Of a stretch of DNA of 64,000 nt, positions 25,060-25,629 are shown one piece after another. The stretch is from an uncultured Chlamydiae bacterium (GTDB lineage: Bacteria; Chlamydiota; Chlamydiia; Chlamydiales; SM23-39). The first letter of the stretch is position 1. Each line of letters opens with the position of its first letter. The DNA lies in contig CAWHDP010000002.1 of NCBI GenBank assembly GCA_963828125.1, positions 1,344,001-1,408,000 on the forward strand, read 5' to 3'. Under the pieces are notes generated by a model. The model ran no database searches and had not been told where the DNA came from. It saw only the letters and a list, made by a program, of their open reading frames with translations. The translations under genes and the position numbers were made by a program.

Positions 25060-25629
25060 TCACTCTTTAAGGCTTAACGTGCGATAAAATTCCGCGAATC
25101 GGACGGAGATCTCCTGAAGAGATTCTATCTCGGTCGCGAAGATGAGATCAGGACGCTCTGGCGGGTCATAGGGGGCGGAAATTCCCGTAAAATCTTGGAT
25201 CTCGCCCCGGAGCGCTTTGGCGTACATGCCCTTTACATCTCGTTGAATACACGTATTCAATCCAGTTTTGACATAGACGAGATAAAAATCGGCGCCTCCG
25301 CTTTCGATCAATTGCCGTACTCTGTCTCTTTGGGTTTCCAAAGGGCTGATCGTCGTGACGACGACCGTTCCGGCCTCATCCAGCTTTGCAAGGGCCAATT
25401 GGGCGATTCTTTCCAAATTCTTCTGTCTGTCTTCAGGAGAATAGCCTAAGTCTTTATTGACCGTTTTTCGAATTACGTCTCCGTCCAAATGGACAAATTC
25501 AGGAAATGCCTTGCAGACCGATTCGGCAATGGTCGTTTTCCCTGAGCAAGGAAGTCCTGTGAACCAAAAGACTTCTTTGGCATTTGCAGCTGCAATGAAA
25601 GAGAGAAAAAGGAAGAGGTATTTTGGCAT
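25060..25629 (-). CDS. cysC: Adenylyl-sulfate (APS) kinase with signal-like N-terminus
   Basis: WFTGLPCSGKTT, LDGD.IR, RDVKGMYAKA..GEI.DFTGISAPY. Confidence 0.93.
   Translation of the reverse strand: MPKYLFLFLSFIAAANAKEVFWFTGLPCSGKTTIAESVCKAFPEFVHLDGDVIRKTVNKDLGYSPEDRQKNLERIAQLALAKLDEAGTVVVTTISPLETQRDRVRQLIESGGADFYLVYVKTGLNTCIQRDVKGMYAKALRGEIQDFTGISAPYDPPERPDLIFATEIESLQEISVRFAEFYRTLSLKE

Follow-up and report, generated by a model that had tools for sequence, protein, structure and literature searches.

An APS kinase with a predicted Sec signal peptide in an uncultured chlamydia and its possible place in nucleotide-dependent metabolism outside the cytoplasm

Introduction

Where does an APS kinase work if it begins with an export signal? 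Known bacterial CysC proteins are cytoplasmic, and the periplasm is regarded as lacking usable ATP, PAPS, and SAM. Chlamydiae take up host nucleotides and SAM through inner-membrane carriers. The question arises from a 64,000-nucleotide stretch of DNA from an uncultured Chlamydiae bacterium (the window, to which all coordinates given without a contig refer). A first-pass annotation had proposed that CysC in this window carries a signal peptide and that PAPS synthesis may be split across the membrane, with APS made inside and phosphorylated outside, or else that the leader is an uncleaved anchor. The full-text literature searched, with supplements and most subscription papers outside its scope, contained no account of a chlamydial APS kinase, Sat, or Adk bearing an export tag. 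Genome papers on the Dependentiae (PMC4378268 and PMC6561590) report many signal peptides and, in the portions available, discuss ankyrin proteins, proteases, and nucleases rather than metabolic enzymes.

Results

The cysC open reading frame runs from 25629 to 25060 on the minus strand, a strand that the first-pass annotation had left unstated, and encodes a protein of 189 amino acids (P0001). P0001 matched PF01583 (E value, 8e−46; score of 156.2 against the Pfam cut-off of 21.1) and TIGR00455 (154.4 bits, above the curated cut-off of 138.7) and was the sole PF01583 match in the source genome (G000; 95% complete). Alignment to solved APS kinases (E value, 3e−35) revealed intact catalytic motifs, namely the P-loop GLPCSGKTT (residues 25 to 33; 25531..25557, minus strand), LDGD, ISP, and RDxKGxYxKA; the P-loop, LDGD, SP, and RDxKGxY presumably have the roles assigned to them in APS kinases. 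The predicted structure of a homologue, P0032, rather than of P0001 itself, superposed on the APS kinase 2ofw with an rmsd of 1.3 Å over 174 columns. By profile and motifs, P0001 is an intact-looking APS kinase and is predicted to be catalytically active.

The protein begins MPKYLFLFLSFIAAANA, with KEVFWFTGLPCSGKTT following the predicted cleavage site. Residues 1 to 17 (25579..25629, minus strand) form a predicted Sec/SPase I signal peptide ending in A-N-A before a Lys, a call that draws on the sequence, on a self-written n-, h-, and c-region heuristic used for all leader calls, and on conservation in homologues. Features fitting the Sec/SPase I pattern under this heuristic were K3, an 8-residue hydropathy of 2.94, and the A-N-A at −3/−1; neither a lipobox Cys nor a twin Arg was identified on inspection of the leader sequence. 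As the first-pass annotation had described, the leader stands before the intact P-loop, an AAGGA ribosome-binding site precedes the ATG, and no ATG, GTG, or TTG occurs between the cysC start and the P-loop. The AAGGA (25636..25640, minus strand) is 6 nt from the ATG. Nor was an alternative start present in the 21 open codons upstream of the ATG. A promoter and terminator scan gave signals no better than chance. Positions 25549 to 25849 are covered, with zero differences, by a contig assembled from a different sample of the study that yielded the window; two contigs of a second study, which abut each other, are also identical over the leader region. The leader is thus not an assembly slip.

The background of the heuristic was low, with 57 of 6238 internal-Met pseudo-starts called (0.9%) and no leader called (0/80) in the negative control, 80 distant non-chlamydial APS kinase loci from the related-locus search. 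The heuristic miscalls some enzymes that start with a hydrophobic strand, and only cases with the domain wholly past the cleavage site were used. The uncharged run of the P0001 leader spans 14 residues (10 to 20 in homologues) and ends at the first core strand without a linker; in the P0032 model, the leader is predicted with low confidence and is succeeded immediately by the first core strand. A 14-residue run without a linker is more easily reconciled with a cleaved signal than with an anchor. Signal peptides usually precede a neutral or acidic early mature region, and here the region is positive, which counts against the cleavable-signal reading. The first 18 mature residues carry a net charge of +1 in P0001 and of +1 to +3 across 26 leader-bearing proteins, against a genome median of −1 for 277 soluble leader calls, 84 of which also have a positive early mature region. 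As read from the sequence, the leader predicts export of P0001, with translocation and cleavage the presumed consequences.

Homologues of P0001 are named as Chlamydiia, Simkaniaceae, and Parachlamydia, and the genomes encoding such proteins are labelled as of the same order; with the four TLC nucleotide translocases described below, we take the source to be an environmental chlamydia. A leader directly precedes the first strand in 17 of the best 20 non-self homologues, and one of the remaining three has a leader-bearing cluster mate. The first-pass annotation had named leaderless homologues as a finding that would refute it; this does not hold, and the leader is real and conserved. It persists down to about 45% identity. 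Over the 26 leader-bearing proteins, mean identity to the query is 0.32 in the leader and 0.57 in the kinase, and Ala or Gly stands just before the first strand in 18. The leader has kept its character and diverged in sequence, as is the usual mode of signal peptide evolution.

APS kinase matches at E values of <1e−20 were found in 55 of 400 sampled genomes (G107 was left out of this count and of the MFS-orthologue count below). The 52 distinct ORFs examined comprised 30 leader calls, 5 more leaders recognized by eye, 3 ORFs cut at contig ends, and 14 leaderless proteins. A quick IQ-TREE phylogeny (SH-aLRT support, midpoint root, L128, L142, and L200 omitted) resolved two leader-bearing groups. 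Clade A (support, 99) holds the query, the short kinases, and forms of 320 to 330 amino acids with a C-terminal HxGH domain, and leaders are present in 31 of its 35 short-branch rows and none of its 5 long-branch rows. Divergent, leaderless, long-branch APS kinase-like proteins (L136 to L139 and L144) group within this clade. Clade B (support, 93) consists of fused ATP sulfurylase-APS kinases (Sat-kinases); among 120 database homologues, leaders numbered 77 by strict calling and 110 by a relaxed definition (hydrophobic leader). Leaderless proteins were placed between the two clades, which on this quick midpoint-rooted tree suggests that the leader was gained twice independently.

The 9 kb downstream of cysC contain five sulfotransferase-like genes. 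They are all that were found in the source genome, and each has a leader: 22411..23256, 21528..22346, and 16795..17640 (minus strand; PF00685), 20308..21531 (minus strand; PF03567), and 19564..20379 (plus strand; PF13469 with an E value of 7e−5, under the cut-off, and a PRTG loop). Their Pfam scores are weak (E values, 1e−5 to 1e−7), and a PF13469 profile search of the genome gave no match. Leader-bearing sulfotransferase-like genes near the kinase were also identified in G014, G085, G170, and G326. Other leader-bearing products encoded nearby are a NodZ-like glycosyltransferase (29945..30802, minus strand; PF05830, E value of 1.7e−6, just under the cut-off), a nucleotide-diphospho-sugar transferase (18779..19576, plus strand; PF03407), a glycosyltransferase (17647..18654, minus strand; PF13524), the S-adenosylmethionine decarboxylase SpeD (15192..15623, plus strand; TIGR03330, above the cut-off), and a short GT32-like protein whose leader was recognized by eye (24537..25052, minus strand; PF04488, E value of 0.002, under the cut-off). 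A GT32-like glycosyltransferase with membrane segments is encoded at 23210..24694 (minus strand; PF04488). In run X2, one contig lacked a single base at 24601, near the start of the 494-amino-acid glycosyltransferase ORF, and the true start of that ORF may therefore differ. The kinase locus adjoins rfbBCD in several genomes. Two further features of the window were recorded: a leader-bearing protein at 15620 to 16546 without a Pfam match, in which a glycine-rich loop resembling that of kinases was recognized by eye (paralogues at C1:346625, C1:347434, and C2:1625682) and, at 31658 to 32676, just upstream of the sulfation operon, two ORFs resembling by eye an IS630-type transposase.

The cysN gene (26845..28074, minus strand; start taken at Met37 of a 445-amino-acid ORF) encodes a GTPase subunit in which Pfam identified only GTP_EFTU and eEF1A_C domains; its match covers positions 25 to 430 of the 632-position CysNC model, and a kinase domain is therefore lacking. 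The ATP sulfurylase subunit is encoded by cysD (28079..28960, minus strand; NF003587, above the cut-off). The heuristic called no leader on CysD or CysN, and the first-pass description of both proteins thus holds. Profile searches of the source genome identified no Sat or CysH, and as CysDN is present without either, PAPS would serve sulfotransfer rather than reduction.

True cysD was present in 8 of 401 genomes, four of these eight from one genus, which counts against the comparison. All eight carry an APS kinase gene, and a fused APS-forming domain was found intact in none of them (0/8). Short clade A kinases occur in G000, G133, G145, and G197, and G135 has a divergent kinase only; fused Sat has lost its motifs, which we take to be QTRN, HxxH, and GRDHA, in G028 and G052, and in G035 the Sat domain is deleted. 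The kinase of G197 and the cysD of G135 are broken. A proposed rule that Sat decays only where CysDN exists was rejected, as G280 and partly G186 break it. No CysD or intact Sat was found as an APS source for the leader-bearing kinases of G280 (degenerate Sat) and G351, and a clade A fusion is present without a Sat or CysD match in G014, G219, and G236.

The C-terminal domain of the 320- to 330-amino-acid relatives keeps the motifs HxGH and SGTxIR. Its assignment to Sat failed, as the conserved adenylyltransferase fold ranks NMNAT (Z, 13.5; rmsd, 2.9; 128 aligned) above Sat 1v47 (Z, 10.1; rmsd, 3.1; 134 aligned), and a sulfurylase role for the domain is therefore a guess. Fusions of APS kinase to an intact NMNAT-like HxGH domain were seen at L083, L084, L129, and L131 and in P0021, P0023, P0024, P0031, and others; leaderless non-chlamydial proteins also combine the two domains, some in reverse order. 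The fusion is a candidate minimal PAPS synthase, and the P0001 clade derives from a kinase fused to such an NMNAT-like adenylyltransferase domain.

Between cysN and cysC lies the gene of an MFS transporter (25661..26848, minus strand; PF07690), a candidate APS carrier, whose probable start codon overlaps the stop codon of cysN (ATGA, by coordinate arithmetic). Its orthologues adjoin cysD/N in seven of the eight cysD genomes; the exception is G052, on whose kinase no leader was found. In G000, G028, and G035, the MFS gene is followed directly by a leader-bearing kinase, built differently in each, and in G133 and G145 the kinase is unlinked from cysDN-MFS. Family f8 has an orthologue in 26 of its 35 genomes, most of them lacking cysD, and this gene adjoins hemH at every f8 locus read. 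Given this distribution and the hemH neighborhood, the transporter is not dedicated to CysDN, and its candidacy as a dedicated APS exporter is unsupported as stated. In G036 (L204:6377-8791), the orthologue and an RsmB-like methyltransferase, recognized by eye, form a single reading frame, which may reflect read-through or an assembly error. Two other carriers are encoded in the window. A TauE/SafE-family membrane protein (28964..29923, minus strand; PF01925) is a putative sulfate carrier, and an EamA/DMT transporter (13939..14862, plus strand; PF00892) has counterparts close to the kinase or to SpeD in two genomes (G014 and G028) and next to the MFS gene in G036.

P0001 is one of many export-tagged nucleotide-using enzymes, a lineage-wide pattern that the first-pass annotation had missed. 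The heuristic gave 277 soluble leader calls among the 1866 genes of the source genome, an upper figure since some calls are false. In chosen cases, Pfam confirmed the family assignments of leader-bearing adenylate kinase, SpeE, SpeD, CMAS, SAM methyltransferases, HIT, NUDIX, Ppx/GppA, and APH-type kinases, as well as the glycan families GT6, GT11, GT17, GT25, GT92, and STELLO, plus two collagen-like proteins in a glycosyltransferase cluster. The leader-bearing Adk (C2:381061-381786; L153) scored above the adk cut-offs; a second Adk-like gene at C2:204487 is weaker and leaderless. Leaders were called in 24 of the best-scoring 29 chlamydial Adk loci (L231 to L260), which are not a random sample, and an internal Met just after the leader in several Adk loci suggests two isoforms. 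SpeE (C2:97965-98861) is leader bearing, and both spermidine enzymes, SpeD and SpeE, are thus tagged. The genome also encodes four full TLC (ATP/ADP-type) nucleotide translocases and homologues of the type II secretion proteins GspD (secretin), GspE (T2SSE), and GspF (T2SSF).

Several gene arrangements were recorded alongside the census. A region of about 20 kb (C2:1240328-1259500; L156) has leaders in 15 of its 17 called genes and contains GT25, GT2, GT92, STELLO, methyltransferases, and two collagen-like proteins, the last being possible glycosylation targets. A leader-bearing GT6 (ABO-type family) and GT11 fucosyltransferase lie close together at C2:1002227-1004608 (L157), and at C2:41574-43581 the genes of a TLC nucleotide translocase and a leader-bearing HIT hydrolase are arranged head to head. 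In G326 (L133), two neighbors of the kinase, a nucleoside phosphorylase and an acireductone dioxygenase recognized by eye, both have leaders.

Discussion

Our preferred reading, to which we give about an even chance, is that P0001 carries a cleavable Sec signal and that, after cleavage, the kinase acts in the periplasm of a chlamydia that lives inside cells and imports nucleotides, making PAPS from exported APS and host ATP. Sulfate would enter through TauE, and cytoplasmic CysDN would form APS. The APS would then be exported by the cysN-coupled MFS transporter, the weakest step of the scheme. Exported CysC, whose leader and motifs can be seen, would phosphorylate it with host ATP in transit to the inner-membrane translocases, and the five leader-bearing sulfotransferases would use the PAPS on envelope or secreted glycans from the leader-bearing glycosyltransferases. 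Export, cleavage, the compartment (periplasm or inclusion), the MFS substrate, and the acceptor are points that we infer. The first-pass proposal of a split across the membrane is unproven, with G280 and G351 as counterexamples, and has gained comparative support from the decay or absence of APS-forming domains alongside CysDN, the coupling of the MFS gene to cysN, the leader-bearing sulfotransferases, and the translocases.

Imported nucleotides must cross the periplasm; the chlamydial periplasm therefore need not be nucleotide-free, and this traffic favors periplasmic PAPS synthesis. The masses of ATP, APS, and PAPS are about 507, 427, and 507 Da, respectively. The available part of PMC3104491 describes an EamA-type SAM carrier and an inclusion permeable below 520 Da. 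According to an excerpt of PMC7432876, the E. coli periplasm contains ATP at a low level (24 µM per 10^10 cells), and this ATP is hydrolyzed. More broadly, environmental chlamydiae may conduct nucleotide-fueled biosynthesis outside the cytoplasm, with dozens of ATP-, SAM-, PAPS-, and NDP-sugar-dependent Sec-tagged enzymes drawing on cofactors of the host in either the periplasm or the inclusion. PAPS synthesis would have been relocated at least twice and, where CysDN is present, split, with the MFS transporter exporting APS; the fused NMNAT-like domain may be a minimal ATP sulfurylase that has gone unrecognized. This wider picture is, in our estimation, evenly poised between right and wrong.

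The kinase, sulfotransferases, and glycosyltransferases might instead pass through Sec and then type II secretion into the inclusion lumen or host cytosol, using host ATP there and acting on host or inclusion glycans; this is the main rival and was overlooked in the first-pass annotation. This route would suit genomes without an APS source of their own, and the GspD, GspE, and GspF homologues are compatible with it. C. trachomatis sends the Sec-signal proteins CPAF, Ptr, CT311, and CT795 to the inclusion lumen, where host UDP-glucose is thought to supply glycogen synthesis, as set out in the accessible text of PMC6717882. We nevertheless consider the route unlikely, as APS from cytoplasmic CysDN would dilute outside, the locus adjoins rfbBCD in several genomes, and collagen-like proteins of the cell itself are encoded in a cluster with the leader-bearing glycosyltransferases. 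Nor is there a sequence mark of type II secretion substrates to point to; we know of no sequence signature for them.

Were the leader to stay uncleaved as an anchor, as the first-pass annotation had alternatively suggested, or to be used poorly as a signal, the enzyme would face the cytoplasm together with CysDN. That would agree with the positive early mature region and with an operon shared with cytoplasmic CysDN, and APS export would be unneeded. By an established rule, however, a basic N terminus implies a C-out topology, the 14-residue uncharged run leaves no linker before the first core strand, and the small residue at −1 is conserved. Leaders on the sulfotransferases and the fused Sat-kinases would also go unexplained, and an anchor is thus disfavored and quite improbable.

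A kinase exported and uncoupled from CysDN could use host APS or PAPS, possibly in reverse to yield ATP, or be the relic of a self-sufficient exported enzyme. The leader-bearing kinases without an APS source (G280 and G351), the unlinked kinases of G133 and G145, and the decayed kinase of G197 and cysD of G135 point in that direction; the three differently built kinases directly after the MFS gene in G000, G028, and G035 and the intact catalytic motifs of P0001 point in the other and make it very improbable. A start mis-called on T-rich upstream DNA, which reads as F, L, and I, is largely refuted and barely credible given the single possible start with its ribosome-binding site, a leader kept down to about 45% identity, and the two controls.

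If the preferred reading of a periplasmic kinase holds, the exported APS kinase and its exported PAPS-type sulfotransferases would clearly depart from the view that the periplasm lacks usable ATP, PAPS, and SAM, and energy parasites would use host nucleotides before import. It would also be a warning that metabolic reconstructions of chlamydiae put such enzymes in the wrong compartment. The system provides small soluble enzymes open to direct test and a candidate APS carrier, and through the leader-bearing kinase one may approach a metabolism outside the cytoplasm that has apparently not been described.

P0001 shares its P-loop, LDGD, ISP, and RDxKGxYxKA with the APS kinase CysC (PF01583 and TIGR00455), and its closest solved relatives are the human PAPSS1 kinase domain (2pey), Aeropyrum 2yvu, and M. 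tuberculosis CysC (4bzp). It differs from known CysC proteins in the Sec-type leader that immediately precedes its first strand. The chlamydial Sat-kinases of clade B, to which P0001 does not belong, share the architecture of the Aquifex bifunctional Sat/APS kinase (2gks; NF004040) but differ in their leaders and in some decayed Sat domains. Periplasmic aryl-sulfate sulfotransferases (ASST) also act outside the cytoplasm and are PAPS independent, whereas the neighbors here have P-loop, PAPS-type folds. Golgi sulfation relies on cytosolic PAPSS, SLC35B carriers, and lumenal sulfotransferases; by analogy, an activated donor would cross a membrane to the transferases, with the proposed split here falling between APS and PAPS. 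AK2 is the adenylate kinase of the mitochondrial intermembrane space, and the leader-bearing Adk may work alike, outside an ATP/ADP carrier; both comparisons are analogies of function. In C. trachomatis, Sec/type II-exported proteins and the glycogen enzymes of the inclusion lumen likewise work outside the cytoplasm on host-derived nucleotide substrates; in the accessible text of PMC6717882, however, the glycogen enzymes are type III secretion substrates, and the Sec/type II examples given are proteases or unknown proteins rather than ATP-using biosynthetic enzymes. The extracytoplasmic compartment of these chlamydiae might be likened to a mitochondrial intermembrane space crossed with a Golgi.
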